NCBI GenBank assembly: GCA_963727455.1
Contig: CAVSGG010000012.1
Location: 88,609-152,608, forward strand
From: Candidatus Krumholzibacteriota bacterium
GTDB lineage: Bacteria > Krumholzibacteriota > Krumholzibacteriia > JAJRXK01
Reading direction: 5' to 3'
DNA: 64,000 nucleotides
In this document: one piece after another, positions 1,819 to 20,060 of the stretch
Numbering within the stretch: the stretch's first letter is position 1
How the letters are laid out: the number at the start of each line of letters is the position of its first letter
Notes under the pieces: model-generated
The model's database searches: none
What the model saw: the letters and a program-made list of their open reading frames with translations, nothing else
What the model was told of the DNA's origin: nothing
Program-made: the position numbers and the translations under genes

Positions 1819-2069
1819 TGAGTGTCCTCTTGAGGGGGGTCTGAGGGGTGGTAACTCGCCGAAGCATCGCTATCTCACCAGATTGTAGCCAAAACTAAGC
1901 ACGGCGGAGCAGCCTGCCACTCTACGTCGGTCCTTGGCGGAAGGTTGCTCCCCAATCCGGATCGGGACAGGTATAGTACGCTCATTGTCGCCAAGATGCG
2001 ATAGGGAGAAGGCCCACGGTCGTCTCGCGGCCGGGGACGGGGTCCCATCCACCCCAAGCGAGCGTGGCC

Positions 2070-3317
2070 ATGTTCGTCAAATTCTGCCTCTATTCGGTAT
2101 TCAAGAACCTGCGCTTCTTCGAGCCCTTCTTCGTGCTGTATCTTCTCGCTCCCATGGACCGGGGCGGGGCTCAGCTCAGCTACCTGGCGATCGGCACCCT
2201 GGTCGGCTACCAGAAGCTGCTCACGGGAATTCTCGAGATCCCCCTCGGCGTGGCCACCGATCGTTTCGGGCGGCGCAGCGCCCTGATTTTATGCTTCAGC
2301 CTCTACACTCTGGCCTTCCCCTGCTTCGCATTCGCGAGCCAGCTGCACGGCGGCGCCCTGCACGGCATGCTCTATCTTGCGCAGACTCTCTTCGGCATCG
2401 GTGAAGCCGTGCGCACCGGCAGTCACAAGGCCATCATGCTCGATTGGGTGACCCGCGAGGGAGAGATGAGCGAGGTCACGAGACTCATCGCTCGCACGCG
2501 ATTTTTCTCCAAGCTCTCCTCGGGTCTGGCAGCGCTCGTGGGTGGCTTGGTGGTCTGGCGCATGGCGTCCTTCACCCCCCTCTTTCTCGCGACCACCGTT
2601 CCCGCCTTTTGCGGGATTCTCCTCATGTTGAGTTATCCGAGCTGGCTCGAGGGAGAGCAGCGGCGAGACGGACAGCGCCGCGTTTCTCTGCGGCAGGGGC
2701 TGAGCCGTCTCTTGGCCCGCAAGGGCCTCTGGCCCGTCTTCGTCGCCTCCCTCCTCTTCGAGAGCCAAGTGAAGCTGGCGCAACATTATCTGCAGCCTTT
2801 CCTCGCGGCAGATCTGAAGGCGCGCGAACTCGCTCTGGTGGGAGGAATCGGAGCCGTGCTCGTGGGTGCCTTCTACCTGGTGCAAGGAGCGGTGGGAGCC
2901 GTCGCCGCGCGCCTCTCTGCCCACGCGGAGGAGACGCTTGGAGGAGTAACGAGCGGTCTGTCCGGCATCTACTTCAGCTTGCTTCTGGCCAGCGGATTCA
3001 TGGCGCTGTGCTTCAGCCTGGGCTGGCTCTCCTTGGGCTTGCTCGGCTTCTTCGTGGTGGCAGCTCTGCAGAATTTGCGTCGCCCCATTTTCGTCTCGGG
3101 ACTGAACCAGGTCATGGACCCCGCGCAACGAGCGACCACCCTTTCTCTGGAAAGCCAGGCGCGCTCGTGGTCCGTCGCCCTGCTCTCACCTCCGGTGGGC
3201 TATCTGGCCGACCGCATGGGGATCGCGGCCGCGTTCGCCGCCATCACCCTTCTTCTGGCCGTGGGCTTGCCGCTGCACTTGCGGCGCTTCAACCCGAAGC
3301 TGGACGCCACGAGTTGA
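2070..3317 (+). CDS. MFS transporter
   Basis: About 12 hydrophobic segments; MFS motif A LEIPLGVATDRFGRR and second-half GYLADRMG. Confidence 0.88.
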   Translation: MFVKFCLYSVFKNLRFFEPFFVLYLLAPMDRGGAQLSYLAIGTLVGYQKLLTGILEIPLGVATDRFGRRSALILCFSLYTLAFPCFAFASQLHGGALHGMLYLAQTLFGIGEAVRTGSHKAIMLDWVTREGEMSEVTRLIARTRFFSKLSSGLAALVGGLVVWRMASFTPLFLATTVPAFCGILLMLSYPSWLEGEQRRDGQRRVSLRQGLSRLLARKGLWPVFVASLLFESQVKLAQHYLQPFLAADLKARELALVGGIGAVLVGAFYLVQGAVGAVAARLSAHAEETLGGVTSGLSGIYFSLLLASGFMALCFSLGWLSLGLLGFFVVAALQNLRRPIFVSGLNQVMDPAQRATTLSLESQARSWSVALLSPPVGYLADRMGIAAAFAAITLLLAVGLPLHLRRFNPKLDATS

Positions 3318-3326
3318 GCTCTCCCT

Positions 3327-4205
3327 TTACTGAGACGCCGGGAGCTTGGGCAGGATGACTCCGTCACCACCATAGACGGCTTCGTCCTTGTCGCTGTAGG
3401 CCGATTCGATCCAGCTCGATCGTTTGGCGACCTCCTCCAGAATCGCCTTCACTTGCGTGGCCGCGAAAGCCGCCACCAACTCGTCGGGGATCCATCCTCC
3501 CACCGAGGTCGCGACGGTCCAGGCCAAAAGCGTTCGCTTGTCGTCGAGTTTGCAACAAACATAGGCCCCGTAGTTGGTCGGAACCCAGACTGCCTCCTGC
3601 ATCATCTTTTTCGTCACCTCGGGATGCTTGCCGGAGTCCACGAGTTCGGCCGCGATGCGTTTCTCGTTCGGCGCGATGTCCCAGGTCTGGGTCCAGATGT
3701 ATCCCTCCGAGGCCTTGGCCAACGCCAGCTCGTTGCGAGCCGTCACTACGGTCTGCCGATCCTTTACTGGCCAGGGGGCATGGATGTACACGTAGTCGGT
3801 GCTGCCCCCCTTCCCATCCTCCGCGTAACGCTGCAGGGTGTAGGTGTCGTTGTGCGCATAGTCCGGATCGATCCCCGCGAGCCACACCGAACGCATCGGC
3901 ATCGCCACGATCTTGTAACCGAACACCCGGTGGTTCACCTGGTCCCTGTCGCCCTGTCTCCCCTCCTTGCGCCGGATCACCACCACCTCCCCTGCCAGCA
4001 GCTGCTGCATCTGATCAGGACTCAAGCCCACCAGCGAGTCCTTGGCGTGCGAGCTGTAGAATTCGATGGCACCCGCCACGGTGCGCGCCAGCAGGGAATC
4101 CGCGCTGGCCGAGGTCTCGGCCGAAGAGGCCTCTGCCTTCGCGCGGGCACCAGGCAGCGCGGCGAGCGCGAGCAGGAGGATCGCAAACGGGCGAGAGAGG
4201 CGCAT
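3327..4205 (-). CDS. Secreted START/SRPBCC-like lipid-binding protein
   Basis: Signal peptide MRLSRPFAILLLALAALPGARA from ATG 4205; START-like motifs YIHAPWPVKDR and GGWIP. The ORF extension to 4685 is probably non-coding overlap. Confidence 0.55.
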   Translation of the reverse strand: MRLSRPFAILLLALAALPGARAKAEASSAETSASADSLLARTVAGAIEFYSSHAKDSLVGLSPDQMQQLLAGEVVVIRRKEGRQGDRDQVNHRVFGYKIVAMPMRSVWLAGIDPDYAHNDTYTLQRYAEDGKGGSTDYVYIHAPWPVKDRQTVVTARNELALAKASEGYIWTQTWDIAPNEKRIAAELVDSGKHPEVTKKMMQEAVWVPTNYGAYVCCKLDDKRTLLAWTVATSVGGWIPDELVAAFAATQVKAILEEVAKRSSWIESAYSDKDEAVYGGDGVILPKLPASQ

Positions 4206-4396
4206 GGTGCTCACTTGATCGGGTGCTCTTGGAAACGATACCCAGGCAGTGGGAAAAGAGTAGCCAGAAGGCACCAGGGCCGAAAGGGCGCCGCCTGCTC
4301 TTGATCCAAGCTGGCGCGAGGATCTAGCTTGGCGGCGTTCCTGTAGCGATCGCGACGCGATCTTTTGCCCGCCCTTCTTGGAAAGGACCTGCCGGC

Positions 4397-5599
4397 ATGA
4401 AGCTGGTCGAACACCTCGGCAAGCGCCTCCTTGCCCGATCTGGAATTTCGACGCCGAAGAGTGAGCTCGCGAGCTCTTCCGCCGACGCGCTGCGCGCTGC
4501 GGAGAAAGCTCGAGGGGCCCGTGGTCGTCAAGGCTCAGATCTTGGCTCCCGGCCGTGGGAAGCACGGCGGAATTCTCTTCGCTGAAAACGCCAAGGAGGC
4601 GGCCGAAGCGGCCGAGCTCCCTACTGAACAAGAACTTCGGTCCGGAGTTGTGCAGTAGCGTCCTGATCGAGGAACGCTTGAACATCGCCGAGGAACTCTA
4701 CCTGGCGTTCACGGTGGACGCTCCGAGTCGCCGACTGAATCTGATCCTCACCCGACACGGCGGCGGAGATGTCGAGAAGATCTTCCGCGAGCAACCGCAA
4801 GATGTGATCGTGGAGCCCATCGGCGCTTTCGAAACCTTCCATCCCTTCAAGGGAAGAGAGCTCGCGCTGAGAATGGGGCTGCGCGGCAAGGCGGTGTTGA
4901 AAGTCGGCGATGCCATCACCAAACTCGTCGCCTGCGGACGCGCGAACGATTGTCGTCTCGCCGAAATCAACCCGCTGGTTCTCACCGAGGACGGGCAGGT
5001 CGTCGCGGCCGACGCAGTGATGAACGTGGACGAGGACGCCCACTTTCGTCTGCGCTGGATGAACGAGTTCGGATTGTCCATGGAGGAGGAACGCCCCCGG
5101 CAAGCCACACCGCGCGAGCTCTTGGCGGCGGAGATCGACCGGGTGGATTACCGCGGTTCGGTCCATTATCAGGACATCAACGAGAACGGCGACGTGGGAA
5201 CGGTAACGGTGGGAAGCGGATTCTCCATCACCATGCTCGACGTCCTGGGCAATTACGGACTGAAGCCGGCCAACTTCTGCGACTGCTCGGGAAGCCCGCC
5301 CGCCGAAAAGGTCCGCAAGAGTTGCGAGATCGTTCTGAGCATCCCCAAGATCAAGGCCTTCCTGTTTCTGAGCGGGATCATGACCCAGGACCTCACCGTC
5401 ACCGCCCAGGGGATCATCGAAGCCTACCGGGAACTGTCGCCCACCATTCCCTTCATGGTGAAGTTGGCGGGCAATCGCGATCGCGAGGCCTACCAGATGA
5501 TGGTCGATGCCGGTCTGCCCCACGTGTACCAGACGGGAGGATCCGGTGGAGTCGATCGTCGAAGACTGCGTCCGTCTTCTGGAAGAGGGGAAGAGCTGA
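4397..5599 (+). CDS. Succinyl-CoA synthetase beta-like / citryl-CoA synthetase large subunit (frameshifted as assembled)
   Basis: MKLVEHLGKRLL, VVVKAQILAPGRGKHGGI (adjacent frame), EELYLAF, AEINPL and PANFCD. Frame changes near 4505, 4620 and 5535; likely true stop TGA at 5597-5599. Confidence 0.8.
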
Positions 5600-6513
5600 T
5601 GGCCATCCTCGTGAATCAAGACACGCGCTGCGTCATCCAGGGAGCCACCGGTCAGGGCGGCAAGCGCTTCATCCAACGCATGATCGACTTCGGCTCGCCA
5701 CCGGTGGCGGGCGTCACCCCGGGCAAGGGCGGGGAAGAAGTGGCGGGGGTGCCCGTCTTCGACACCGTCAAGGAAGCGGTGGCCGCAACTAGCTGTGACT
5801 TTTCCTCCATCAACGTGCCTCCCGCGCTGGTGAAGGACGCTGCCTTCGAGGCCTTCGACGCCGGCATCCGCAAGATCTTCATGTACGCCGAGCGAGTTCC
5901 CTTGCACGACGCGATGCAGATCATGGCCTACGGCGACGAAGTCGGCGCCACCATGGTCGGCCCCAACAGCCCCGGCATCGTCAGCCCGGGCAAGTACCGC
6001 CTGGGAGGACTCGGCGGTGACAGAGAGTACGTGGCCGAGATCTTCAAGAAAGGTGAAGTGGGGCTGTGCAGCCGCAGCGGAGGCATGACCTCGACTTTGG
6101 GCTACACCATCAGTCAGGGCGGCCTGGGCCTCACTACCGCGGTGGGCTTGGGCGGGGACGCGATCATCGGCTCGCCCTTCACCAAAGTGCTGCCGCTCTT
6201 CGAAGCCGATCCCGAGACCAAGGCCATCTGCATGTTCTGCGAGATTGGCGGTAGCATGGAAGAGGAAGCGGCCGAGCTCATCAGGAGCGGAGCCATCAAG
6301 AAGCCGATCGTCGCCTTCATCGCCGGCCGCGAGGCGCGCGCCGGCTTCCGTTTCGGACACGCCGGCGCGCTGGTGGAGCGTGGTCGCGGTACCTACGAGA
6401 GCAAGGTCGAAGCTCTGTCTTCGGCAAAGGTGGCCATCGCCAAGAATCTCAGAGACATTCCGGTTCTCTTGCGCGAAGCCCTGGGCATGCCCTCGGGCAA
6501 GGAGCAGTCATGA
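5599..6513 (+). CDS. Succinyl-CoA synthetase alpha-like / citryl-CoA synthetase small subunit
   Basis: MAILVNQDTRCVIQGATG, GVTPGKGG, GPNSPG, SRSGG and phospho-His motif FGHAGA; TGATG coupling to the beta gene. Confidence 0.88.
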   Translation: MAILVNQDTRCVIQGATGQGGKRFIQRMIDFGSPPVAGVTPGKGGEEVAGVPVFDTVKEAVAATSCDFSSINVPPALVKDAAFEAFDAGIRKIFMYAERVPLHDAMQIMAYGDEVGATMVGPNSPGIVSPGKYRLGGLGGDREYVAEIFKKGEVGLCSRSGGMTSTLGYTISQGGLGLTTAVGLGGDAIIGSPFTKVLPLFEADPETKAICMFCEIGGSMEEEAAELIRSGAIKKPIVAFIAGREARAGFRFGHAGALVERGRGTYESKVEALSSAKVAIAKNLRDIPVLLREALGMPSGKEQS

Positions 6514-7292
6514 CCGACTACAGCTGGAAGACGAGTCTGAGCAAAGTCCTGCCCAACCTCATCCGAGTGCGGGGTTACGACATCAACGAGCTCATGGAGA
6601 AGCTGAGCTTTCCCGGCGCGCTCTACCTCTTGTGGACGGGCAAGGTGCCGGAGAAACCAACCGAGAAACTCATCTCTGCCATCATGGTCTCGAGCATGGA
6701 TCACGGGGCTTCTCCCCCTTCGGTGAACGCGGCGCGAATCGTGGCCTCCACCGGAGGAACCCACAACGCGGCCATCGCGGCCGGCGTGCTGGCTCTGAAC
6801 AGGTACCACGGCGCCGCGGTCGAAGACTGTATGCAGATGCTCGTGGACTTTTGCCAAGAGAAAGAGGAGAACGGCCAGGAAAACGCGCAAGTCGCCCATG
6901 CCATCCTCGCCCGCCTGAAGGAACGTGGCGAACGCGCCTGGGGCATCGGGCACCGCCTGCACACCGCGGACCCACGGCGCGAGACTCTCTTTCGCCTGTG
7001 CCGCAAATGCGGAGTAGACGGCAAGTACATCGAGGCGGTCGAGGCCATCGCCGCCGCGGTGACCGAGAAGGCCGGCCGGCCCATGCCGGTGAACATCGAC
7101 GGCTGCGTCGCGGCCTGCCTGTGCGAGATCGGATTTCCCAAGACCATGGCAAATGCGCTGTTCATTCTCTCGCGTTCGGCCGGGATCGCGATTCAAGCGC
7201 GCGAAGAGATGGACACCCAAAAACCCATGCGCAAGATTCACCCTGCGGGTTTCATTTACGATGGACCGGAAGACCGCAAGCTCGAGCTGTAG
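6510..7292 (+). CDS. Citryl-CoA lyase (citrate-synthase-like)
   Basis: 260 aa; IRVRGY, DHG, HGAA, GIGHRLHT.DPR and PVNIDG motifs. Size and motifs fit stand-alone citryl-CoA lyases. Confidence 0.82.
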   Translation: MTDYSWKTSLSKVLPNLIRVRGYDINELMEKLSFPGALYLLWTGKVPEKPTEKLISAIMVSSMDHGASPPSVNAARIVASTGGTHNAAIAAGVLALNRYHGAAVEDCMQMLVDFCQEKEENGQENAQVAHAILARLKERGERAWGIGHRLHTADPRRETLFRLCRKCGVDGKYIEAVEAIAAAVTEKAGRPMPVNIDGCVAACLCEIGFPKTMANALFILSRSAGIAIQAREEMDTQKPMRKIHPAGFIYDGPEDRKLEL

Positions 7293-7341
7293 TAGACTGG
7301 GGCGGAGGTTTCCAGCTCCCCGAACCCCTTGGGTGAATCCG

Positions 7342-9199
7342 ATGCACATGCTCCAATCTGCCGGCCAATCGCCCAAGCGGCGCGCCGCCTTTTTTGTGCT
7401 CTTGCTCCTGCCCCTGCTCGCTCTTTGGCCCTGCTTCGCTCGCGCGAGTTCACAGCTGAAACAGATCCTGCCTCCGGCCCTCCCCTGGCACGGCAAGAGC
7501 GAGGAGCTCATCGCGTCCGAAGGACGACCCCTGGATCACCCCGGCCGAGGAAATGCACCTGCGCGACAGCCCCGACTACGATCTGACTCACGACTGGCTC
7601 ATGCAGCTGGTGGATGCGGCGCCGCAGCTGAAACTCGTCTCTCTAGGGAAGAGCTACGAGCAACGCGACATCTGGATGGTCATCGCGAGCAAGGAGGGTG
7701 TGTGCACGCCCGAAGCCCTCGAGGCCAACGGGCGCCCCACGCTCTTGGCGCAGGCCGGGATCCACAGCGGGGAGATCGATGGCAAGGATGCCGGGCTCAT
7801 GCTCTTGCGCGACATGACGGTGGATGCGCGCTGCCCCGAACTGCTCGATGGCGCCAACTTTCTCTTCATTCCCATCCTGAGCGTGGATGCCCACGAACGT
7901 CGTTCCACGACAAACCGCATCAACCAACGCGGACCGCGCACCCAGGGTTGGCGCAGCAATGCGCGCAACCTGAACCTCAATCGCGATTACACCAAGCTGG
8001 ATACCCCCGAGATCCGGGCGGTGGTGAAGGCTCTCAACCGTTGGCCGGTTGATCTCTACCTGGATATCCACGTCACCGACGGTGCCGACTACCAGTACGA
8101 CATCACCTACGGCTTCAACGGGAGTTTCGCCTGGTCTCCCTCCATCGGGGGCTGGCTCGAAAGTACCTTCCGCCCCGCTCTGGATCACGAGCTGAAAGCA
8201 ATGGGACACGTTCCCGGCGATTTGATCTTCGCGGCAAACGGCAAGGACATGCGTGGCGGGGTCTACTCCTTCACCGCGGGGCCACGCTTTTCCACCGGTT
8301 ACGGGGACGCACGCCACTTGCCGACGGTGCTGGTGGAAAACCACTCTCTGAAGGACTACCGCCGGCGCGTCTTGGGAACGCGGGTATTTCTGGAGGGGAC
8401 CCTGCGGCTTTTGGCCAAGGAAGGCGAGAGCCTGCGCGATTCGACGGCGCGCGATCGCATCCGTCGCCGCAAGGAGATCCCCAGCGAGTTCGAGGTGCCC
8501 GAGACGAAGCCCGAGCTCGTCGACTTTCTGGGGGTGAAGTCGCGCCGCGTGTTCTCAGAGATCTCGGGCGACAGCGTGGTGCAGTGGCTCGGCGAGCCCG
8601 AGACGATTCGCATCCCGCGCATCGTGGCCAACCAGCCCGCCGGTATGCTCACCCGTCCCAAGGCCTACTGGATCCCCGCCGCCTGGCCTGAGGTGATCGA
8701 ACGCCTGAAGCTGCACGGCATCAAAGTGGAAAAAGTCGGGGAGCCCGAGGGACAGTCGGCGCAACTCGAATTCTACCGGCTGCAGGATCCGAAGCTGGCC
8801 AAGGAGCCCTACGAGGGTCACGCGCGCGTCAGCGCCGAAATCGAACCCGTGCAGAGGAGCGTCAACTTCGCGATGGGCTCCGCCAGGGTTCCCACCGACC
8901 AGCCGCTGGGCGATCTGGCCATGCTGCTCTTGGAACCACAGAGCCCGGACTCCTTCTTCCAATGGGGCTTCTTTCTCTCGAGCCTGCAGCGCACCGAGTA
9001 TTTCGAGAGTTACGTGATGGAACCCATGGCGCGCGCAATGCTTGCAGAGAATGACAGTTTACGCGTTCAGTTCGAGCAAAAGTTGAAGAATGACGAGGAC
9101 TTCGCGAAGGACCCGAACGCGCGGCTGGAGTGGTTCTACGAGAAGACGCCCTACTTCGACAAGCGCTACCGCATCTATCCGGTGGGCATCGAGCGCTGA
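7342..9199 (+). CDS. M14 family zinc carboxypeptidase, secreted (one frameshift near 7520)
   Basis: GIHSGEIDGKD, NLNRD and LDIHVTDG motifs. The signal peptide and LPPALPW lie in the preceding frame. Confidence 0.85.
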
Positions 9200-9317
9200 C
9201 TGGCGCTCGATGCCTTCGTTCTGCTAGGATCGCCGAGGCCCTTCCCCATCGGCCGTGCCTTCCCCCCATGCCGCATCGTCGACCTGCCTGCCTCTCGCGT
9301 CCACTCGGAGGCTGCCC

Positions 9318-11733
9318 ATGGATCTTCAGCGTCGTCCCTACTCTTCTCGCACCTCTTTCGCACGCGATCTGCTGGTCATCAACGCGCTGATCTGGCTGCT
9401 CGCCCCACTTCCCGCGCGGGCGGGCGTCGAGCCCGTCCCTTTCCATGGCTGGCTCGTGGCGCCTTTGGGAAATGCTGTCCTGGGCGACACCTCTCTGCCG
9501 AACTATCTGGTCGTCAACAACATCGGGAGCAGCGGACAGGACGGCGTGCGCTTCGACCTAGGCGCCACCCGCGGACGCATCGGCCCCGTACGTTGGATGG
9601 CGCCCGAGAGTCTTTCCGGTCGAAAGTACCGGGTGGTATCCGAGGGAAGCGATGCGGCGGGAACTCTGTGGTGGGCCACGGATGCAGTGGACCGCGGTGG
9701 GGTGTTCGATTTCAGCATTGATCCCGGCAACCTGGTAGTCCAGGGAACCATGGTGGCGATCACCCTGACCAACGATGGCGATGTGGTCGCTACCCTCGAG
9801 CTGGACAACAGTACGAGTCCTCTCTTCAGCTCCAGCGCTCCTTTTGTCGGTGTGAGTGAAGGACTCGGCGAGATCGCGGCGGACTTCGAGGCAAGCGCCG
9901 CGGGCAAGGCCATCGTTCCGCCGATCCTGGACGACCGCAATTTCGAATTCGAACCCGGAAACCAGATTAGCATCGACGGCGTGGGAACTTTCCCCGCCGA
10001 CGGGGTGCACATCTCCCACCGGCTGCGCCATCGCGACCGGCTGGTGCTCCACTACCTGGATCTGCTCTTCACCGAGCCGGCGGGTTCGACCGGAACGCAG
10101 AGGCTGCGCGATCTGGCCATGGGACCCTTCTTCGGGACGACGCGCGGGCGAGGAGGAGTGCTGCTCGAGAGCGCTTCGGTGGGGTCTCAGGATCGCCTCA
10201 CAGTCAGCAACATCGGCAGCAGCGGTGAGGATGGAGTCGCCTGCGACTTCGAGGAGGATGAAGTGGGAATCGCCCTGTTGTGGGATCCCTCGACCCTCGC
10301 TCCTCTGAGCGAAGGGGCCAGGATCCTCATCGCGGCGGACGCGGCGCAGGGGACCGCGCCGGAGGATCCCGTCGTCTCGTGTTCCGCCCTCTACGAGAAT
10401 CGGCAGCTCTCGATCGTCCGCGATCCCGCCACCACCGGCTCACCGCTGGAGGTGGCCTTCTACCTGGATGACGTCATGGTGAGCGCAGCTTCCGACCCCA
10501 GCGCCGCGCTGCAGGTGAGCGCGAGCCAATGGCCCAGCAGCGCCGGAGTCGAGAACGGCGATGCCCCGGGCGAATCCATCGTCTCCTGGGGCTTTGACCA
10601 GCCGGTCTCCATGCAAGCGGGGACCGACTCTCCCGTCTTGGCCGACCAGGTGCGCCTGCTCGTACCCAGTCTGGTTGCGCCGACCAAATCGACCCGGCGT
10701 GTCGTCCTCACTCCCCCGAGCAGCGCGAGCCCGTACGACTGGACAGTTCTGGGACGCCGAAACACGATCCACCCGCCGGATCCCATCACGCCCTACGCCG
10801 CACTGCGTGGCCTTCACGCCGCGGGGATCGTGCACCGGGACATCGCCGCTCGCGTCGCCAACATAGGGAGTAGCGGTGAGGACGGCGTCAGGGTGGAATT
10901 CGAGCCCGCATCCAACTTGGGACTCAAGTGGCACTCGTCGTGGACCGGCGCCGGGTCTCCCGGCGAGCGCATCATGATGCCGACCTACGGCACCACGAAC
11001 AGCGACCCCGATCGGCCGATCATCGTCGGCCAGCTTTGGAACGAGAGCACGGGCAGTGAGGTGCAGGTGGGAGGAGATCTGAGCCCGCTGGGCGCCGGTG
11101 GACTGGTCTTCGAGCTCTATGACGATGGCGTATTGGTGAACAGCATCACCGCGCTGAACGATGCACCGGCGTTGAGCCTGCCCTCACCGCCCGACAGGGA
11201 TGAGCGTGCGGGCTGGCGCAAACGGCCCGGTATTCTACCTGCAGCTCGTCGCAAACACCCAGGTCTCGACCCTCAGCTCACCGACCAAGACGACGAGCCA
11301 GGCCGATTTCATCGTGGCAAAACCCAGCGAGTCACCAGCTGTGGTTCCCACCGAACTGGTCGCGCTCTCTCTTCGTGCGAGCTCTGTCGCCTGGGTCGTG
11401 ATCGACGATACCAGCCCCCACTACGCGGTCGACGCGCCGCCGGCGCGGGCGGCTGCCGCTCTGACTCTGTATCCCAACGTGCCCAATCCCTTCAATCCAC
11501 GCACCAGCATCGCCTTCGATCTGGACCGCTCCGGTCCCGTGAGTCTGCGCATCTACGATGTGCGGGGACAACTGGTGGACGTGCTTCAGGACGGCTATCT
11601 GAGAGCAGGTCACTACGTGAAGATCTGGGAGGGCTTGGACGCCCGAGGCAAGGACGTGGCATCAGGGATCTACTATTTGCAGCTGGATACAGATGGCAGA
11701 CGCAGGACGAGCAAGATGAGTCTGGTGCGCTAG
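9318..11733 (+). CDS. Secreted protein with three NIGSSG(E/Q)DGV repeats and a C-terminal FlgD-Ig/T9SS-like sorting domain (frameshift near 11190)
   Basis: Signal-peptide-like N-terminus; repeats at 9519, 10209 and 10860. The C-terminal LYPNVPNPFNPRTSIAF..IYDVRGQLV..W.G.D..G..VASGIY..KMSLVR lies in ORF 11200-11733. Confidence 0.75.
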
Positions 11734-12494
11734 GCGTTTTCTTCATCGAGCAGGACGCGTGCGACCTCCTCGGCCACGATGCGGGCCAGGCGCTGAGTAT
11801 CGTCAGCCCATTTCCCCCGCGGCACGACACGAGCGCCGCGCGCTGCGGGATCAGGGCCACCTCCACTACTGGCCACGAGCGCGCTCACCTCGTCACGGCT
11901 CAACGCGCGGGCGCCGCCGGCCAATTCGGCTAGAAGGGTGATCTGCGCCAGGTGCTCCACCGTCTCCAGGGTCTGAAACGCGGTCATGGGATCGGGCCCG
12001 CAGGCCACCACCCCGTGGTTGGGCATGAGCACCGCGTCGTGACGGGTGATGTGCTCACAAACCGCTCCAGCCACCTCATCCGTCCCCGGGGTCGCGTAGC
12101 GGCTCAGCGGAACCTTCCCCAGACCGAGCACCACCTCGGGCAGAAGACAGTCCTCAAGACCGCGCCCGGCCGTGGCCAGCGCGGTAGCCCAGCTGGGGTG
12201 CCCGTGCACCACCGCGCCCACCTCGCCCCGCGCACGGAAGATGGCCAGGTGCATCTGAATCTCGGTCGAGGGCTTGCCCTGGGCAGCGCGACCATCCATC
12301 CCCACCTCGACCAGATCCTCCGGCTTCAAGAATCCCTTGGCCGCTCCGGAGCGGGTCGCCAAGACCGTCTTCTCGTCGAGGCGCGCCGATAGGTTGCCCT
12401 CGCAGGCCACGATGAGCCGCTGCTGGTACATCAGCGCGCCCACGCGGATGAGTTCGCGGGTAGCATCTTCGCGGGTAAGTCTGAGCTTTGTCAC
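11730..12494 (-). CDS. Class II aldolase/adducin family protein
   Basis: EGNLSAR, PSTEIQMH, VVHGHP and LMPNHG zinc-binding motifs; GTG start at 12494 is approximate. Confidence 0.88.
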   Translation of the reverse strand: MTKLRLTREDATRELIRVGALMYQQRLIVACEGNLSARLDEKTVLATRSGAAKGFLKPEDLVEVGMDGRAAQGKPSTEIQMHLAIFRARGEVGAVVHGHPSWATALATAGRGLEDCLLPEVVLGLGKVPLSRYATPGTDEVAGAVCEHITRHDAVLMPNHGVVACGPDPMTAFQTLETVEHLAQITLLAELAGGARALSRDEVSALVASSGGGPDPAARGARVVPRGKWADDTQRLARIVAEEVARVLLDEENA

Positions 12495-12534
12495 GGCAAC
12501 TCCCAGTTCTCCGATACCGCGCACTCGAAGCGCC

Positions 12535-13029
12535 TCAGAGCTTCGCCAGCTCGGCCAGCGCCTCCACCCCATTGCGCTTCAAGTAGGCCACGATGCCGCC
12601 CTCATCACGCAGCTTGAGCATCAGAGGCGAAAGTTCGACGGGAATCTTTGTGCCCTGCGTCTCGTTCACCAGGCACTTCGCCTCGATGTCCAACTCCAGC
12701 TCGTCCTTCTCCTTGATTCCATCGGTATCCGCGATCAACAGGAGCAGACCCTGGTTCATGCAGTTGCGGTAGAAAATGCGCGCGAAGCTCTTGGCAATGA
12801 TGGCTTCGATTCCGGTGTGGGCGAGCGAAGTGACCGCGGTCTCGCGACTACTGCCACAGCCGAAGTTGCGACCGGCCACCACGAAGTCCCCCTTCTTCAC
12901 ATTGGGCGCGAACTCGGGCCGGTACTCGATGAAGCAGATCTTGGCCAGCTCCTCGGGGTCGGTGGTTTGGTTGTAGCGACCGGGGGTGATGAGGTCGGTG
13001 TTGATGTTGTCGCCGAAGAGCCAGTTCAT
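12535..13029 (-). CDS. leuD: 3-isopropylmalate dehydratase/homoaconitase small subunit (LeuD/HacB type)
   Basis: NINTDLITPGRY, GRNFGCGSSRE and SFARIFYRN motifs. Confidence 0.85.
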   Translation of the reverse strand: MNWLFGDNINTDLITPGRYNQTTDPEELAKICFIEYRPEFAPNVKKGDFVVAGRNFGCGSSRETAVTSLAHTGIEAIIAKSFARIFYRNCMNQGLLLLIADTDGIKEKDELELDIEAKCLVNETQGTKIPVELSPLMLKLRDEGGIVAYLKRNGVEALAELAKL

Positions 13030-13030
13030 C

Positions 13031-14293
13031 TCAACCTCGCACCGTCTGGGGGAGATACTGCCGCGGATCGCTGATCACGCCGGTCAGCGCGGTGGCGGCC
13101 GCGGTGGCGGGGCTCGCCAGATAGATCTGGGCGGTGGGGCTTCCCATGCGGCCCTTGAAATTGCGGTTCGAGGTGGAGACGCACACCTCGTCATCGTCCA
13201 GAACTCCTCCCTGCCGTCCCAGGCAGGCCCCGCAGCCGGGGTTGGTAATGGCGGCGCCCATGTTCAGGAAGAACTCCACGAGCCCCTCCTTCATCGCCTG
13301 CAAATACACGCTGCGGCTGGCCGGGGTGATCACCACGCGCGTATTGGGATCGAGCTCACGGCCCTCCCAGATCGACTTCACGATGCGCAGATCCTCGATG
13401 CGGCAATTGGTACACGAACCGATGAAGACCTGATCCACGGGACGCCCTGCCACTTCCTCCACCTTGGCCTCCTGATCGATGTCGTGAGGACAGGCCACGG
13501 TGGGCACCAGCTCTTCGACATCGATCTCGATCGTCTCGCAATATTGCGCATCCGGGTCGCTGCCGTTGGACGCCCAGTCCCCTTCGCGACCCTGCCCTTT
13601 CAAGTACTCACGAGTGCGTTCGTCACTGGGCACGATCGCGGTCTTGGCGCCCAGCTCGGCGCACATGTTGGTCAAAGTCAGACGGTCGGGGACCGGCCAG
13701 TTCCGAACCCTCGATCCCCCGAACTCGATGATCTTGTAGGTGCAGTGCTCGGTGCCGAGTTTCCCCGCGATATGCAGGATGACGTCCTTGGCGAAGACCC
13801 CGTGCGGAAGCTCGCCCTCGATGAGGATTCGAATGACCTCCGGCACGCGAAACCACAGCTTGCCGCTGGCCAACGCCACCGCAGCGTCGGTGCTTCCTAC
13901 GCCGATGGTGAGGGCCCCGAGTCCTCCGCCGGTAGGGGTGTGACTGTCGGCGCCCAAGACCAGCATGGAGGGATGAATGTAATCTTCCGCCAGGAGCTGG
14001 TGGCACACCCCGTCGGTGCGAATTTTGATTCCCTGCTCCTTGGCGAAAGCTCGCACCTTCTTGTGGAGATGGGCCATGGCGGTGCTGGGCGCGGGATAGG
14101 CGTGGTCGAAGGGAATCACGATCCGCTGCGGATCGAAGACCTTGTCCGCAATTTCGTAGAAGGGATCCACCGCCCAAGCGCCGGTGGTATCGTGCGCCAT
14201 CACCAAGTCGAGATCGCAGATCACCGTGTCGCCGGGATGGACCTCGCGTCCGCAGTGCGCGGAGAAAATCTTCTCCGGAAGATTCTGTCCCAT
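13031..14293 (-). CDS. leuC: 3-isopropylmalate dehydratase/homoaconitase large subunit (LeuC/HacA type)
   Basis: DSHT, GSCTN, GCGACLG and STSNRNFKGRMG aconitase-family motifs; 420 aa short type. Confidence 0.87.
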   Translation of the reverse strand: MGQNLPEKIFSAHCGREVHPGDTVICDLDLVMAHDTTGAWAVDPFYEIADKVFDPQRIVIPFDHAYPAPSTAMAHLHKKVRAFAKEQGIKIRTDGVCHQLLAEDYIHPSMLVLGADSHTPTGGGLGALTIGVGSTDAAVALASGKLWFRVPEVIRILIEGELPHGVFAKDVILHIAGKLGTEHCTYKIIEFGGSRVRNWPVPDRLTLTNMCAELGAKTAIVPSDERTREYLKGQGREGDWASNGSDPDAQYCETIEIDVEELVPTVACPHDIDQEAKVEEVAGRPVDQVFIGSCTNCRIEDLRIVKSIWEGRELDPNTRVVITPASRSVYLQAMKEGLVEFFLNMGAAITNPGCGACLGRQGGVLDDDEVCVSTSNRNFKGRMGSPTAQIYLASPATAAATALTGVISDPRQYLPQTVRG

Positions 14294-14302
14294 GGATCTC
14301 CC

Positions 14303-14524
14303 TCAGCCGCCCGCCACCGGGCGTACGAGTTCGAGCCGGTCGCCTTCGCGCAAGACCGTGGTTGCGAAGGAATCCCGGCCGCGTGGCTCACCATTCCACT
14401 CGACGACCAAGTAGCGCTCGTCGAGTTCCAGTCTCTCGATCAAATCCCTGAGGGTGGATCCTGCGGGGACACTCGACTCCTTGCCGTTGACCCTCAGCGA
14501 AATCACCCTCTCATCCGACGCCAT
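14303..14524 (-). CDS. thiS: Sulfur carrier protein ThiS
   Basis: 73 aa; VNG..VVEWNG..LREGDRLELVRPVAGG, ending in GG. Confidence 0.9.
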   Translation of the reverse strand: MASDERVISLRVNGKESSVPAGSTLRDLIERLELDERYLVVEWNGEPRGRDSFATTVLREGDRLELVRPVAGG

Positions 14525-15638
14525 GCAGTGTCGCCTCCCAGTCCTTCCACACCGGCTGCAGCCCGAGTTCGCTCAAGCGCCTCGCCACCTCGGCCGGAGT
14601 ACGTTGATCCGCAACCTCGAACTGTTCCGCCTGGTCGTTGGGATCCTCATAGCCTCCGGGTTCGGTACGGCTGCCCGCCGAGATCTGGGTGATCCCCAGT
14701 CGCACCAGACCGTCGCGAAACGCGGCGCTCTCCCGGGTGGAGAGGACCAGGCCGAGGTCCGGCAGACAGATTCTCAAAGCGCACACGAGCTGCGCGAGTT
14801 CCGCGTCCTTGACCCGCACCGGGGCGTCGATGGCTTGCAGGGCGCTCTGCAGGCGCGGGACCGATACCGAGATGCGGCTGCGCCAGCAGTGTTTCTGCAG
14901 CCACTGCGCGTGAAGGAAGGTCGCCAGCGAATCCGCGCGCCAATCGCTCAAGCCCAAGAGACTGCCGATTCCGATCTGCTTCATTCCTGCCCGCGCCGCG
15001 CGCTCGGGAGTTTCCAGCCGCCAGTCGAAGTTCTTTTTCCTGCCCGCCGAGATGATAGCGCGCGTAGGCCTCGCGGTCGTAGGTCTCCTGGTACACCGAG
15101 AGTGCGTCGACCCCGCGCCGACCAGCTCGCGGTAGCCCTTCTCGTATTGTGGCGCGACTTCGATGGCCACCGATGCGAAGCGCGGACGTAGGCGCTGCAC
15201 GATATCCTTCAAATAGCCCGTGGAGACGATGCGCGGATGCTCGCCGCTGACCAGGAGAATGTGACGGAATCCCTGTTTGCGCAGGATCTCCGCCTCCCGC
15301 AGCGCCTGCTCTGCTTTCAGGGTCACCCGTTCGATTTGGTGCTCACGACTGAAGCCGCAGTAGGTGCAGGTATCGATGCACTCGTTGGAGACGTAGAGCG
15401 GAGCGTAGAGCTGCACGATGCGCCCGAAACGCTGCACCGTGATCCTGCGGGCGAGTTGGGCCAGATCCTCCAGCCGCCTTTGGGCCGCGGGAGAAAGCAG
15501 GCGCGCGAATCGCTCCAAGACTGCCGCCCGAAGCGATTCAACGCCTGCTCGACTTGCACGTCGGTGGTGGCCAGCGAGAGTTCGCGCCAGGCGGAGAAGT
15601 CGGTCGCGTCGAAGAGTTCCTGAAAGCGTGTCGCTCAT
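14511..15638 (-). CDS. thiH: 2-iminoacetate synthase ThiH, radical SAM (compensating frameshifts near 15040-15110)
   Basis: [20 protein letters not shown] (CxxxCxxC), [22 protein letters not shown] and PVWKDW. YQETY lies in the alternative frame. Confidence 0.88.
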
Positions 15639-16418
15639 CCCTCACTCGCCTCGAGGAAGCCGGTCAGAGGGCTGGAAGCTTCCGCCGTCATTCTCTGCGG
15701 TGGCAGACCCGCCTCGTAGGCCACACGTCCGGCATGCACCGCGTCCTTGAAGGCCGCGGCCATCGCGGCCGGATCGCGCGCCACTGCGATGGCGGTATTC
15801 ACCAGCACCGCGTCCGCGCCCATTTCCATGGCACGAGCGGCGTGACTGGGAGCGCCGATGCCCGCATCGATCACCACCGGCACCGTGGCCTGTTCGATGA
15901 TGATGGAGAGACTGGCTTCGGTGCGCAGACCCTGGTTGCTACCGATCGGACTCCCCAAGGGCATCACCGTGGCCGCGCCGGCTTCCTCCAGGCGCTTGGC
16001 CAGCACCGGATCGGCCGGCATGTAAGGCAGCACGGTGAAGCCGTCGGCCACGAGCAACTCGCAGGCCTTGAGGGTCTCCACCGGGTCGGGCAAGAGATAG
16101 CGCAGGTCGGGCGTCACCTCGAGTTTCACCCAGGAAGGCATGCCGCTGGCGCGCGCCAGACGCGCAAGACGCACCGCTTCCTCGGCGTCCTGCGCGCCGC
16201 TGGTGTTGGGAAGCAGCAGAACCGCTTTGGGGTCGAGGAAGTCCAGGATCTCGTCGCCCTTCGCGCTGGGGATCCACGCGGCGCAGAGCGACCGTCACGA
16301 TCTCCGTCCCGCTCGCGCGAATCGCGTCGCGCATGGAGGCGCCCGAAGGGAACTTGCCGGTACCCAGGATCAGACGGCTCGTGAAGGTTCGATCGGCAAT
16401 GGAAAGCGGTGTACTCAT
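15635..16418 (-). CDS. thiG: Thiazole synthase ThiG (frameshifts near 16230-16270)
   Basis: N-terminus [17 protein letters not shown]; C-terminal part [28 protein letters not shown] and ASSPL. Confidence 0.92.
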
Positions 16419-16651
16419 GATGTTCGTCCCGCGGCTGGATGTCTCTCAGAGGGGCAATCTAGCAGAGCCTGGGGCCAAGTCAACGTGTCCCGCATCCCGG
16501 ACGGCCTTCCGGACCGGAACACTCACTGTTCGAGCAAGCGACCCTGTCCCACTGCACATACCCTTCTTCTAAGTTCCGTAAATACAGACTATTTTGAGCT
16601 TCCTATCAAGTTCTTTCGCAGCTTGGCGAGCTGCGTGCAGCAGGCTGCGGC

Positions 16652-17728
16652 ATGCGCGGTCTTCTCGGCATACTGCTTTTGTCCACCCTGCTTGCGAGCT
16701 GTCGCTTCGCGCCCACCGCGGCCGTCGCGCCGCCGCCAGCTCACCCCCTGCCCGGCTCCTTGCGTCCGGAGTATCTTCTTCCCCGCGACACCCTCAGCCT
16801 GGCCATCTCCGTCGTCGATCCCGATCCCACCCTTCTCGGCTTGCGCGTGCGTTGGGGAGAGCAGATCAACACCCTCAACGGGAGCGGGCCCTTCGAACTC
16901 GCGCTGCCGCGCCTCGCGCGTTCCCCGGCCGACCTGCGGATCGAGACCCTGCCGAGCGACGCAGAACTTCACCTCCATCTTCCTGCCTCTCTGCACGGAC
17001 CGCCAGCGCTTTGAACTCAGTATCCTGCCGCTTTCGCTTTCGGAAAACAATGTCTACGCGCGCGACCTCGACCTGCTCACCGAGTTCGTGCGCCCCTTCG
17101 ACGGCGGAGTCATCCGCCGTTGGCCCTTGGAGACTCTTGAGAATTTCCGAGCCCGCACGCCAGGCCCGATGTCGACTATCTGGGAACTCTGCGCAACGCG
17201 GTCGCGATCTGGAACCGGCTCCTGGGAGTCGAGCGTTTCGTTCTGGTGCCTCAGGGCGCCGAGGCGGAGGTAGAGTGCGAGGTTTCGAAGGAGAGCAGCC
17301 TGGGTTACACGCGCCTCGTCTCGCGCGATGAGGAGCGGCGTCCTCTGCACATGCTCGTGCACCTGAGTCCTCACTTCGCCAGCGGAGCCGAGCGTTACGT
17401 CCAGAGGGTCTGGCTGCACGAGCTGGGACATGTGCAGGGACTCTGGGGACACTCGGAGGATCCCACGCACGTCCTCTACGCGCACTTCATCGCGGTGGAC
17501 GAGCCGGCGCCACAGGAACTCAAGATGGCGCGCTGGCTGTGGTCGATTCCCCAGGCCTCGCACCTCGGCTGGTACGTGCAGTCCGATTCCAATCAGGCCG
17601 AGCGCCGGATCGTGAGCTCGAGAGCTGAGGCCGTGTTCAGTCCACTCTCAAATTCCACGGCAGACGAAACTGTGGAGTGCCGTCCATGGCCGCCAGACTC
17701 GCCTGTTCCGCGATCAGCAGACCGTTGA
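16652..17728 (+). CDS. Lipoprotein with matrixin-like zinc metalloprotease domain (frameshifted; 3' end uncertain)
   Basis: Lipobox LLASC; HELGHVQGLWGHS zinc motif in ORF 17246-17728; pieces lie in different frames. Confidence 0.55.
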
Positions 17729-19489
17729 CCAAGGCATCGAGCGAATCGGAGACGTGGGGCATGCGCACCGCGCTGCTCCACAAGAGGCCACGCAGGAGAC
17801 GATCGAAAGTGCTCATCTCGCGACGGTAGCGAACGAGAGCTCACCCTGTCATCCTGCAGGAATTCGCGCCAAGCTCTTGGCGACTTCCACCGCCTCCTTC
17901 AGGCCGCCCAACTCATCCACCAACCCGAGCTTCTCAGCGTCCCTGCCACTCCATACCCTTCCGCGTGCGATGGAGTCCGCTTGCGCGAAACTCAGGCCAC
18001 GGCCTTCGGCCACCTTGTCGACGAAGCGCTCGTAGAAGCGCCTGAGTTGCGCGCGGATTTCCACTCGCTGTTCCTCGGAGAAGGGCCTCAGGTCGGTGAA
18101 GAGATCGGCATTGTCTCCGCGCGCGATCACCTCATGGTTGATTCCCACCTTCTGGTACAGCCCGGTCAGATCCGCTTTGCCCACGAAGACTCCGATGCTT
18201 CCGGTGAGGGTGAGCGGTTCGGCCACGATGGCGTCGGCGGACATCGAAATGTAGTAACCGCCGCTGGCCGCGAGATCGCCCATGCAGACCACCAGCGGTT
18301 TCTTGGCGCGCACACGCTCCAGCTCCCGCCAGATGAGATCGCTGGCCAGGGTCGAACCTCCGGGGGAATCGACGCGCAGCACCACCGCCTTGACACTGTC
18401 GTCTTCCCGCGCCCGACGCAGACGCTGGATCGAGGGTGTCGCTGCCCAAGAGTCCCGAGCCGGGCTTCGCGTGGCCGGGGACGATGTCGCCCGTGGCGTA
18501 GATCAAGGCCACGCGCCGGCGGCGATCCTGGCGCGGGGCATGGTAGGGCGCGTCCAGATAGTCCAGCGCATCGATGGTGACGAGGTCCTCCGCGCCGCTG
18601 CCCAGCTGCGCATCGAGATCGACCGAATCCACCAGCCGGTCCACCAAGCCCTCCTCCATCGCGCTGCGGGCATCGAAGTAGCCGCGATCGACGAGGTCCT
18701 CCATGTGACGCTCGGAGAAACCGCGCGCGCGCGCCATGGCCTTGATCCAGGTGTCGAAGACCGCGTCCACGTAGACTTCGACCTGTTGGCGCGCGGGATC
18801 GCTCGGTCCCTGGCGGGTCCAGGTTTCCGGAGCAGACTTGTACGCTCCAATCGCCACGAAATCAGCCTGTACTCCAACTTTGTTGAGAAGTCCCTTGAAG
18901 TAGGTCATCTTGGCCTGAAGGCCCAGGATGAGTAGATTGCCCTCCGGTGCCAGAGCGATCGAATCGGCGGCGGTGGCCAAAAAATACGCGCGCGTGCTGG
19001 CCACGCTCAAATAGGCCCAGACCGGTTTGTGCGCCTCGTGGACGCGCTCGAGCAGGGTCCGAAGCTCCTGGGCCTGTGCCCATCCGCCGGAGTACAGGTC
19101 GGGCTTCAGGATCACTCCCTTGATCCGCGGGTCCTCGCAGGCGCGGTTCAGAGCGCGCACGAAGTCCTCGTGACTGGGCTCCTCGGGGCGCAGCAGCGAG
19201 CGCAGCCCTCCGTCCTCGCGAGCCTGCTTCGGGATACTCCGCGCCAAAGGAGAGCTCGAGCCAGCTGCCGTCCTCCACGCTGGGGCGCCCCCCCATCAGA
19301 AGGAAGCGAACTCCCAGGTAGCCCAGCCCCAGCAGAACGAAGGAGGATCAGGGGACCAATCCACCAGCGGGAACGCCGGCGCGAGGGCCTCCGCGGCCGG
19401 CGCGGCGCCCTTCGCTCGGAGCGGGAGTCGAGGGACGAAGGGCTGAAATTGCTCCTTCCGCCGGGAGGCGGAGGCGGGGCTTGAGTCAT
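17637..19489 (-). CDS. sppA: Signal peptide peptidase SppA, 67K type (multiple frameshifts)
   Basis: DPRIKGV, GAYKSAPE, LRVDSPGGS, AASGGYY, TGSIGV, GRVWSG and GLVDELGG. The C-terminus ...QFRLPWNLRVD* ends at 17637 in another frame. Confidence 0.88.
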
Positions 19490-19634
19490 GGGAGTTCTCC
19501 TGCGGTAATCGGATCCGCTGAGAAGTATGGAGCAAGAGCCGACGATCCGCAGCCAGCAATCGACGAGCCAGTTGTCTGCTTGTCGACGATGGTGCAGCCG
19601 TGCTTAGTTCTTTGGCAGCCAAGAGGAGGAGAAT

Positions 19635-20060
19635 GTGGCTCATCATCAAACTCGGTTCCGGGTTCCTTTCGCGGATGTCGATCACGCGGGCATTGTCTAC
19701 TATCCGCGCCTCTTTCACTACTTCCATCTCGCCTATGAGAGTTGGTTCCACGACGCCCTTCAACGTCCCTTTTCGGAACTTTTCTCCTCGGAAGGAATCA
19801 GCACGCCCGTAGTCAGGGCTGAAGGAAATTTCTTGGCCCCGCTCCGCCATGGTGACGAAGTGACGGTGGAGACCTGGATTGGCGCGCTCGGGCAGAAATC
19901 GTGGACCTTCAGCTTTCTGCTCAACGCCAGAGGGGGGCTCTGCGCGAAGGGGTCGGTAGTCCATGCCTTCGTTCGCGTCCCCGAAATGAAATCCATCGAG
20001 ATTCCCTCAGGCTGGCGAGAAACCGCCCAGAAGTGGCTCGAGGAAACGAGCGCACCCTGA
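19635..20060 (+). CDS. Acyl-CoA thioesterase (4-hydroxybenzoyl-CoA thioesterase/YbgC family)
   Basis: VPFADVDHAGIVYYPR motif, FLAPLRHGD; hot-dog fold size. Confidence 0.88.
   Translation: MAHHQTRFRVPFADVDHAGIVYYPRLFHYFHLAYESWFHDALQRPFSELFSSEGISTPVVRAEGNFLAPLRHGDEVTVETWIGALGQKSWTFSFLLNARGGLCAKGSVVHAFVRVPEMKSIEIPSGWRETAQKWLEETSAP

Follow-up and report, generated by a model that had tools for sequence, protein, structure and literature searches.

How do words that read like pieces of eukaryote-type tyrosine kinases come to lie in an exported bacterial repeat protein? The question is raised by a gene on the plus strand, at 9318-11733, of a 64,000-nucleotide stretch of contig CAVSGG010000012.1 of a Candidatus Krumholzibacteriota bacterium (assembly GCA_963727455.1; this whole stretch is hereafter the window). 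The gene encodes a product of 804 amino acids (aa), available intact as the database protein P0003, with a signal peptide-like N-terminus, three ~220-aa units and a C-terminal sorting domain. The original prediction, made from the letters of the window, had singled out three embedded words, two recalling the P+1/APE region and the catalytic loop of tyrosine kinases and one recalling the oligonucleotide/oligosaccharide-binding (OB) fold of VgrG, and had read them as short modules captured at variable positions of a surface scaffold or as mimicry. In the translation of 9318-11198, to which the residue numbers below refer, all three are present: IGPVRWMAPESLSGRKY at aa 88-104 (containing GPVRWMAPES), LRGLHAAGIVHRDIAAR at aa 496-512 and SDPDRPIIVGQLWN at aa 562-575; their coordinates had been given correctly save for one base too many at the end of the first, and all lie within the gene span of 2416 bases. 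The observation is thus confirmed and its interpretation partly supported: we tentatively favor an old reuse of short foreign segments, kept under selection in a surface scaffold.

The P+1/APE-like word carries the case. The Pfam model PK_Tyr_Ser-Thr (PF07714) aligns aa 86-108 with its positions 163-185 at 15.1-15.8 bits (E 0.009), under its cut-off of 23.1 and over only 23 of its 258 positions. Against a tyrosine-kinase (TK) segment model, built from 17 natural kinase segments of metagenomic origin, the word scores 18.6-18.8 bits, the maximum of 20 window-shuffled replicates being 4.9; in a sample of the family 19 domains reach at least 8 bits, and 0 do so in 20 shuffled replicates. Among the 16,014 six-frame open reading frames (ORFs; 3.5 million residues) of the organism's own genome, the high scorers are 16 genuine Hanks-type kinases and the repeat-protein ORF, and with the P+1 region taken alone the repeat protein scores 18.6 bits and the next ORF 5.7. 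When an alignment of 11 relatives is compared with the 17 kinase segments, hhalign returns a probability of 95.4 (E 2e-8) over 46 gapless columns. The match to kinases takes in 10-17 residues, including a Y seven residues after the APE.

No block of unit 1 is better conserved than this word, which nine of the 11 aligned full-length relatives retain; eight of the proteins keeping it lie at 27-29% identity or closer and five are only 27-29% identical overall to the window protein, while the two most distant relatives retain the W, the P and the E(S) around an insertion. Across seven DNA copies synonymous positions vary freely, Ser being encoded as both AGY and TCG, so the constraint falls on the peptide and not on the DNA. 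Of 201 phylum genomes, 8, from 5 of 80 genera, have the exact pattern (a reversed-pattern control gave 0), and the gene is patchily distributed across the phylum. A search of a large protein database with aa 70-115 returned 4 matches among 44 candidates, close family members only and no kinases. A metagenome scan for the word gave at least 118 loci, and nearly all the matches listed look like fragments of eukaryote-type kinases; no family member is among the matches listed, which says nothing on the frequency of the word in bacteria. When the gene was tiled in 38 pieces of 45 aa, Pfam matched only the P+1 tiles and those of the sorting domain, with a sensitivity no better than that of the whole protein, and the library searched had no paper with 'WMAPES' together with 'bacteria'. 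On these comparisons the word lies beyond every chance model used, and it is under selection at the protein level.

The catalytic-loop-like word of P0003 (LHAAGIVHRDIAAR) scores 6.9-7.1 bits against the TK segment model, and since two other ORFs of the 16,014 score 8.9 and 6.3 bits in the same region, it is unremarkable alone; by a rough estimate, its chance co-occurrence in the same 800-aa protein has a probability of ~1e-3. It is limited to a close clade (P0003, P0004, P0005 and P0006/P0138, with the variants HRDLAAR and HRDIATR), the 27-29% relatives having unrelated sequence at its place, and both population variants that fall inside it are synonymous. Elsewhere in the family the core LH.EG[IV][IV]HRDIA.R recurs, at other places, in P0049, P0070, P0095 and L026. 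The match in P0070 (aa 251-280) spans 30 residues, among them the segment that immediately precedes the catalytic loop and that by kinase anatomy we take to be helix alphaE, and reaches 17.3 bits with the TK segment model and 19.8 bits with Pfam; Trk or ALK tyrosine kinases account for 49 of the 50 PDB matches listed for this segment. The word of P0003 gains weight from this family context only.

As for the VgrG-like word, tblastn against plasmids with 43 aa around it matched 12 records, and because eight of these matches fall in tssI/VgrG genes the resemblance is specifically VgrG-like; every match had an E-value of 4-8, and in P0003 the resemblance does not reach significance. A single PDB match to the region was obtained (E 0.84), and Pfam Phage_base_V gave no match at E<=10 in P0003 and none in the tiles at E<=0.5. 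A hidden Markov model from three VgrGs of related genomes scored the word at -2.4 bits (the best shuffled score being 2.9), and hhalign of the 11-sequence alignment against the same three relatives' VgrGs returned a probability of 0.06. In the internal alignment of the units the word faces ...APEDPVVSCSALYEN of unit 2, and in our own reading a one-residue register shift would bring out a common pattern, P.(D/R)P[VI][VI]...L[YW].N. Because unit 2 shares this pattern opposite it, the VgrG-like word of P0003 is most likely a chance elaboration of a strand intrinsic to the unit. The organism's own genome has no Phage_base_V match and 4 of 41 relatives have one; the relatives' VgrGs carry strings near-identical to VgrG-like pieces of the family (GRIKVSYPWL, LPEIDDEVLVGY). 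Hence the argument of the original prediction, that three such matches are unlikely to arise by chance, holds for the P+1 word, is weak for the HRD word by itself and fails for the DPDRP word, which does not rise above its controls.

The hallmark of the wider family is L.VSNIGSSGxDGV, which heads units of ~200 aa. We obtained 132 representatives at E<=1e-3 and collected 624 units; of 137 proteins gathered, 129 carry the NIGSSG motif. The repeat unit is matched by no Pfam or NCBIfam model, the library searched had no paper with 'NIGSSG', and the family appears to be new and uncharacterized. Its closest genomic relatives are Krumholzibacteriota metagenome-assembled genomes (MAGs), with the wider family occurring in MAGs labelled Planctomycetota, Verrucomicrobiota, Bacteroidota, Eisenbacteria, Zixibacteria and others; a search of viral contigs gave 21 pattern matches and no relative. 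The C-termini vary, comprising type IX secretion system (T9SS) tails, dockerins, PEP-CTERM and a tail-fibre chaperone domain. The genome under study has a single NIGSSG-repeat gene.

Foreign-looking fragments recur across this family. In a Pfam scan of 135 members (E<=10 for eight proteins, E<=1 for 14 and E<=0.01 for 113), with true accessory domains set aside, short PK_Tyr_Ser-Thr matches were found in P0003, P0004, P0005, P0015 and P0070, a Phage_base_V match in P0070 (20.2 bits), Phage_GPD matches in P0049 and P0083 (18.4 and 18.0 bits) and a Bac_DNA_binding match in P0062, which covers the HU arm and, at 24.2 bits, exceeds its cut-off of 22.4. Pattern and profile searches add P[ED][VI].DEV[LV]V.F in P0049, P0070, P0085 and P0116, GRIKVKLPW in P0070, QYRE[ST]DW in P0024, P0083 and L058, and the HU-arm word in the Verrucomicrobiales locus L032. 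GPVRWMAPESI follows NIGSSG in the group of 800-aa proteins and lies elsewhere in P0070. Many sub-threshold Pfam matches in P0012, P0013, P0016, P0021, P0030 and P0037 fall, as we read the segments, on stretches with the family's own motif words and were dropped from the count of foreign fragments. Resemblances to RNA-recognition motifs (RRM; KLFVGGLSW.T) and to the HU N-terminus (MNKADLIE) were also rejected, Pfam giving no match for them. Family-wide, the differing places of the kinase-, VgrG- and HU-like fragments fit the capture of short modules proposed in the original prediction; in P0003 itself the words do not take freely variable positions. Likewise, a collection of homologues, suggested there as a check, shows kinase-like words recurring elsewhere, as in P0070, and also weaker intrinsic skeletons at the same places in paralogous units.

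Some further observations concern the family at large. P0085, P0091 and P0097 end in Peptidase_S74 (42-65 bits), a domain that serves phage tail spikes and fibres as an intramolecular chaperone, which links the repeat to tail-fibre-like proteins. P0062 and P0125 have an N-terminal plastocyanin/azurin-like copper-binding domain. A word GH[VI]T[VIL][LM]K recurs with 17 matches in 13 of the gathered proteins and 13 in loci, often after CP.CPP or at the extreme C-terminus. The unit core DFSPLGAS.YTVQAYL.G.LVAQ.TNQNG matches positions 68-100 of Pfam DUF7522, in P0037 at aa 307-339 with 30.8 bits (cut-off 27); matches of this type in P0037, P0016 and P0030 indicate a possible link of the unit to the DUF7522 family.

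The layout of the gene is as follows, all features being on the plus strand:

9318-11733, plus strand: the whole gene for the 804-aa NIGSSGxDGV-repeat surface protein, split into two frames by one extra base (ORFs, translations, intact P0003).
9318-9422, plus strand: signal-peptide-like N-terminus, a hydrophobic stretch ending in PARA before G (by eye; modelled helix at aa 13-28).
9483-10172, plus strand: repeat unit 1, ~aa 56-285, with NIGSSGQDGV at 9519-9548 (translation, relatives' alignment, internal alignment).
9573-9641, plus strand: P+1/APE-like word GRIGPVRWMAPESLSGRKYRVVS, aa 86-108 (Pfam, TK segment model, hhalign, conservation).
10173-10823, plus strand: repeat unit 2, ~aa 286-502, with NIGSSGEDGV at 10209-10238 (translation and alignments).
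10803-10856, plus strand: catalytic-loop-like word LRGLHAAGIVHRDIAARV, aa 496-513, immediately preceding the third NIGSSG (TK segment model).
10824-11463, plus strand: repeat unit 3, ~aa 503-715, spanning the frameshift, with NIGSSGEDGV at 10860-10889 (translations and alignments).
11001-11042, plus strand: VgrG-like word SDPDRPIIVGQLWN, aa 562-575 (plasmid tblastn; modelled strand at aa 568-577).
11186-11199, plus strand: site of the one-base insertion (frames, P0003, contigs of four runs).
11482-11718, plus strand: type IX secretion sorting domain, FlgD Ig-like/Por_Secre_tail (Pfam FlgD_ig, TIGR04183).

The motif NIGSSG(Q/E)DGV begins at aa 68 (Q), 298 (E) and 515 (E). Local alignments of the units against 200 shuffles give z-scores of 10.8 for units 2 and 3, 5.3 for units 1 and 3 and 4.4 for units 1 and 2, the last similarity being owed mostly to the motif itself; the three ~220-aa units noticed at the outset are therefore true repeats, strongly diverged and old. 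The C-terminus matches FlgD_ig at 30.4 bits (cut-off 27) and TIGR04183 at 30.5 bits (cut-off 23), with Por_Secre_tail at 24.8 bits, under its cut-off of 27. The N-terminus, with a hydrophobic stretch followed by ARA before G, is signal-peptide-like by eye. Of the T9SS machinery two components were sought, and the genome encodes both: the PorU sortase scores 449.3 bits (cut-off 420), SprA a summed 555.3 bits (cut-off 200). These matches mark the protein as a predicted T9SS type A surface cargo; its most likely, inferred role is that of an adhesin or binding protein. About 44 further open frames match the PorU model near its C-terminal end only, which suggests the same kind of sorting domain; the organism's repertoire of exported T9SS cargo appears to be large.

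AlphaFold2, given 11 relatives, yields an all-beta model save for the signal helix and a few three-residue turns, with a mean per-residue confidence (pLDDT) of 73.3 and a predicted TM-score (pTM) of 0.54. The best confident Foldseek matches, from a search with the whole model, are to tandem beta-sandwich lectin-like proteins (galectin-8 and a nematode galectin, probability 0.98-0.99), at global TM-scores of 0.12-0.14 by query length and 7-8% identity; matches of lower probability include laminin G, neurexin LNS, PorZ and an S-layer protein. The 50 Foldseek matches listed include neither a kinase nor a VgrG, and the ESM Atlas returned sorting-domain clusters only (scores 0.84-0.85). The secreted surface scaffold of the original prediction is supported by the sorting domain and the T9SS genes. 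For the check proposed there, whether the words lie in surface loops, the P+1 word falls in a low-confidence, possibly exposed stretch, and the words are modelled as beta strands.

In the window the gene is split between a long frame (9255/9318-11933) and a second frame (11200-11733), which ends with a recognizable domain. The switch lies near 11189-11199: beyond ~11195 the first frame turns into Arg-rich nonsense and the second carries the repeat onward. P0003, which the protein database lists for this window, runs uninterrupted through the site, reading ...LPSPPTGMSVRAG... and, across it, ...PSPPTGMSV..., and differs from the window in one residue near the C-terminus (R in P0003, Q in the window). 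The window matches contig C12 of the genome assembly without a difference, so that the extra base belongs to the assembly. In a comparison based on contigs of public runs, other than X5-X12 with their small shares, all four wetland-metagenome runs, from four studies, have one base fewer at 11189; because their contigs are without the extra base, the frameshift is most likely an assembly error and the gene intact in the population. The original prediction, which gives the span 9318-11733 for one protein, had missed the frameshift. Further single-base differences between the window and the contigs of three or four runs, comprising two insertions and two or three deletions, cluster at 11803-11850 in the 3' part of a minus-strand class II aldolase gene; the assembly seems liable to indel errors.

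What, then, is the origin of the words? The reading we favor, to which we give slightly less than an even chance, takes the kinase-like stretches as non-catalytic 'words' of ~15-30 aa. Fragments of a tyrosine-kinase or tyrosine-kinase-like (TKL) kinase gene would have been reused in frame long ago, and duplication and recombination would have passed them on between units and between family members; purifying selection on the protein would then have held them as part of the beta scaffold or as a binding loop, and other members would carry equivalent fragments of VgrG/baseplate-hub and HU proteins. Three metagenome kinase segments (L095, L107 and L133) pair LH..[GN]I[IV]HRD.A.RN with GP[VI][RK]WMAPE in the same variants as the family, which is only a hint at one kind of kinase as the source. 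A bolder form, which we think unlikely, is that the family took up the eukaryote-type (TKL/TK) region from catalytic loop to activation segment and has long kept it by strong selection in an all-beta, non-kinase context, either as a fold-switched building block of the unit or as a displayed mimic of the activation segment; the VgrG and HU fragments of other members would be used likewise, making the family a natural collector of conserved peptide words. Several findings weigh against reuse. A captured fragment outside its fold has no obvious reason to keep kinase residues, yet the word is nearly invariant, and the structural model is uncertain right there, with pLDDT below 50 at aa 84-88 and 96-98. 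A profile of 465 non-redundant general units without kinase-like words shows no similarity to kinases (probability 0.06%), so that kinase homology of the family as a whole is unsupported. No donor is seen in the organism's own genome, where the search for the motif DNA elsewhere, proposed as a check in the original prediction, gave no match and the protein search none either, and none of the 201 phylum genomes has a true HRDxAARN kinase, the lone match lying in a non-coding-looking, Arg/Asp-rich frame. Partial skeletons of all three words exist in the family, namely W(DPSTL)APLSEG of unit 2 at the place of the P+1 word, GIEHEDIG of P0070 and P0049 for the HRD word and PEDPVV..LYEN of unit 2 for the DPDRP word, and their presence in paralogous units makes a step-wise change in place possible. 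In an alignment of P0049 with P0070 words are swapped in place without large indels, and an RRM-like string of P0070, KLYVGGLSFDT, sits exactly at the place of the NIGSSG motif of P0049.

These last points are what convergence or drift in place would lead one to expect: intrinsic skeletons (H.DI before the repeat, W..AP after it and P.DP[VI][VI]...L[WY].N further on) would have drifted, or been selected by the scaffold, into the look of famous motifs, with no foreign DNA involved. Such skeletons occur in paralogous units and in distant relatives, W93 and P96 being invariant even in P0027 and P0036, both of which are without a kinase-like word; the HRD and DPDRP words of P0003 are within or near background, and the missing donor and the KLYVGGLSFDT string fit as well. 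Set against this are the score of the P+1 word, far over every control, the Y at +7 among its 10-17 matching residues, the 30 residues matched by P0070 with the stretch upstream of its catalytic loop, and the unlikelihood that drift in a single family should yield two different kinase words, four VgrG words and a HU arm scoring above its threshold; we regard convergence as doubtful, though well within reach. The strict amino-acid conservation of the word amid ~28% overall identity would also suit functional mimicry, in which displayed peptides copy the kinase activation segment and other abundant proteins, are bound by, for instance, a factor of a protist grazer or a competitor, and are kept alike by selection. 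The protein is probably exported, the model places the word in a low-confidence and possibly exposed stretch, and the variants PIKW, PVRW, QIKW, HRDLAAR and HRDIATR are also found in natural kinases. However, the P+1 and catalytic-loop segments of kinases are largely buried or structural in their native fold and do not serve as recognition surfaces, the words are modelled as beta strands, no partner is known, the gene is as patchy as described above, and the organisms are free-living in wetland, soil or sediment with no sign of a host, all of which renders mimicry quite improbable. Descent at a greater depth, with the start of the NIGSSG unit derived from an HRD...DFG...APE kinase fragment refolded to beta and most units decayed past recognition, would account for the pairing by hhalign of VSNIG with VSDFG, for a G-to-P spacing of 26 in both alignments, and for the HRD-like word just upstream of NIGSSG in P0003, P0049 and P0070, an order colinear with that of kinases. 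It is very unlikely given the null result with the 465-unit profile, the lack of a conserved W in the general unit consensus, and the VgrG-like word that stands in place of a P+1 word in the unit after the HRD word of P0049 and P0070. Finally, that an assembly chimera or sequencing artefact made the motif-bearing stretches has a negligible chance of being true: the window does have indel errors against other assemblies, at 11189 and at 11803-11850, but contigs from four runs of four studies span the gene with 0-4 differences in long pieces and cover the three word regions without joints, and the same words occur in homologues from JGI, NCBI, ENA and Logan assemblies.

The neighborhood of the repeat-protein gene, with an M14 peptidase upstream and a class II aldolase downstream, is common to the closest relative L001 only and differs in L002, L004 and L005, and so gives no functional clue. 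Further upstream, the genes at 4555-6510 (L001:1709-3945) look like a set of ATP-citrate-lyase or citryl-CoA type, with CoA ligase, citrate-binding and citrate synthase domains, and the M14 carboxypeptidase-like gene (7553-9196) follows this set in the same order in L001. The G+C content of the window falls from 0.63-0.66 (bases 1-20000) to 0.55-0.60 (20001-54000), for which an island, another set of genes or a join are possible causes.

If the words do descend from kinase genes, as we tentatively prefer, nature would here offer an uncommonly clear example of short segments reused across folds, with a 10-17-residue core motif of kinases nearly invariant in a beta-sandwich surface protein. Such a case would have implications for the way in which older pieces are assembled into new proteins and for sequence conservation on grounds besides the native fold. 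If they are convergent, the protein would be one more uncharacterized T9SS adhesin. Fragmentary kinase, VgrG or HU matches in such proteins are no evidence of those functions and should be treated with caution in annotation.

Among known systems, the T9SS type A cargo that serves as surface adhesins in the Fibrobacterota-Chlorobiota-Bacteroidota (FCB) group resembles this protein in its above-cut-off C-terminal domain, signal-like N-terminus, accompanying PorU and SprA, and large all-beta, multi-domain body; it differs in that the NIGSSGxDGV unit, of putative function, is matched by no Pfam or NCBIfam model. The tandem-repeat galectins and the laminin G/neurexin LNS domains are the best confident structural matches of the model, whereas the global TM-scores and identities given above set it apart from tandem beta-sandwich lectins. 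With the tyrosine and TKL kinases it shares local matches to the catalytic-loop and P+1/APE regions, down to the Y seven residues after the APE. In contrast to them, a regular-expression scan found no Gly-loop, VAIK or DFG in P0003, the order of the words is reversed, with the HRD-like word 415 aa after the APE-like one, and the Asn of HRDxAARN is missing. The original prediction had noted this reversal (at about 400 aa) and the lack of Gly-loop and DFG, and was right that no kinase fold is possible, given the all-beta model, the sub-cut-off PF07714 score and the Foldseek matches listed. Kinase identity was accordingly rejected (15.1-15.8 bits against 23.1). For the VgrG/gp5 OB fold (PF04717, PF05954), the likeness is an 18-residue match to the ..GDPD.PIIVG..N.. 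strand, with stronger fragments in P0049, P0070, P0083 and P0116, whereas P0003 has no domain-level match and its genome no VgrG; VgrG identity was rejected on the missing Phage_base_V match, the -2.4 bits of the model and the hhalign probability of 0.06. The protein is neither a kinase nor a VgrG. The closest known concept is that of short segments reused between folds, the 'bridging themes' (Mol Biol Evol 2021, PMC8136508; Protein Sci 2022, PMC9387206), which are likewise short and clearly similar stretches within wholly different architectures; in the present case a single secreted repeat family brings together several fragments, whose three or four source families are abundant and unrelated, and one of the fragments is nearly invariant.

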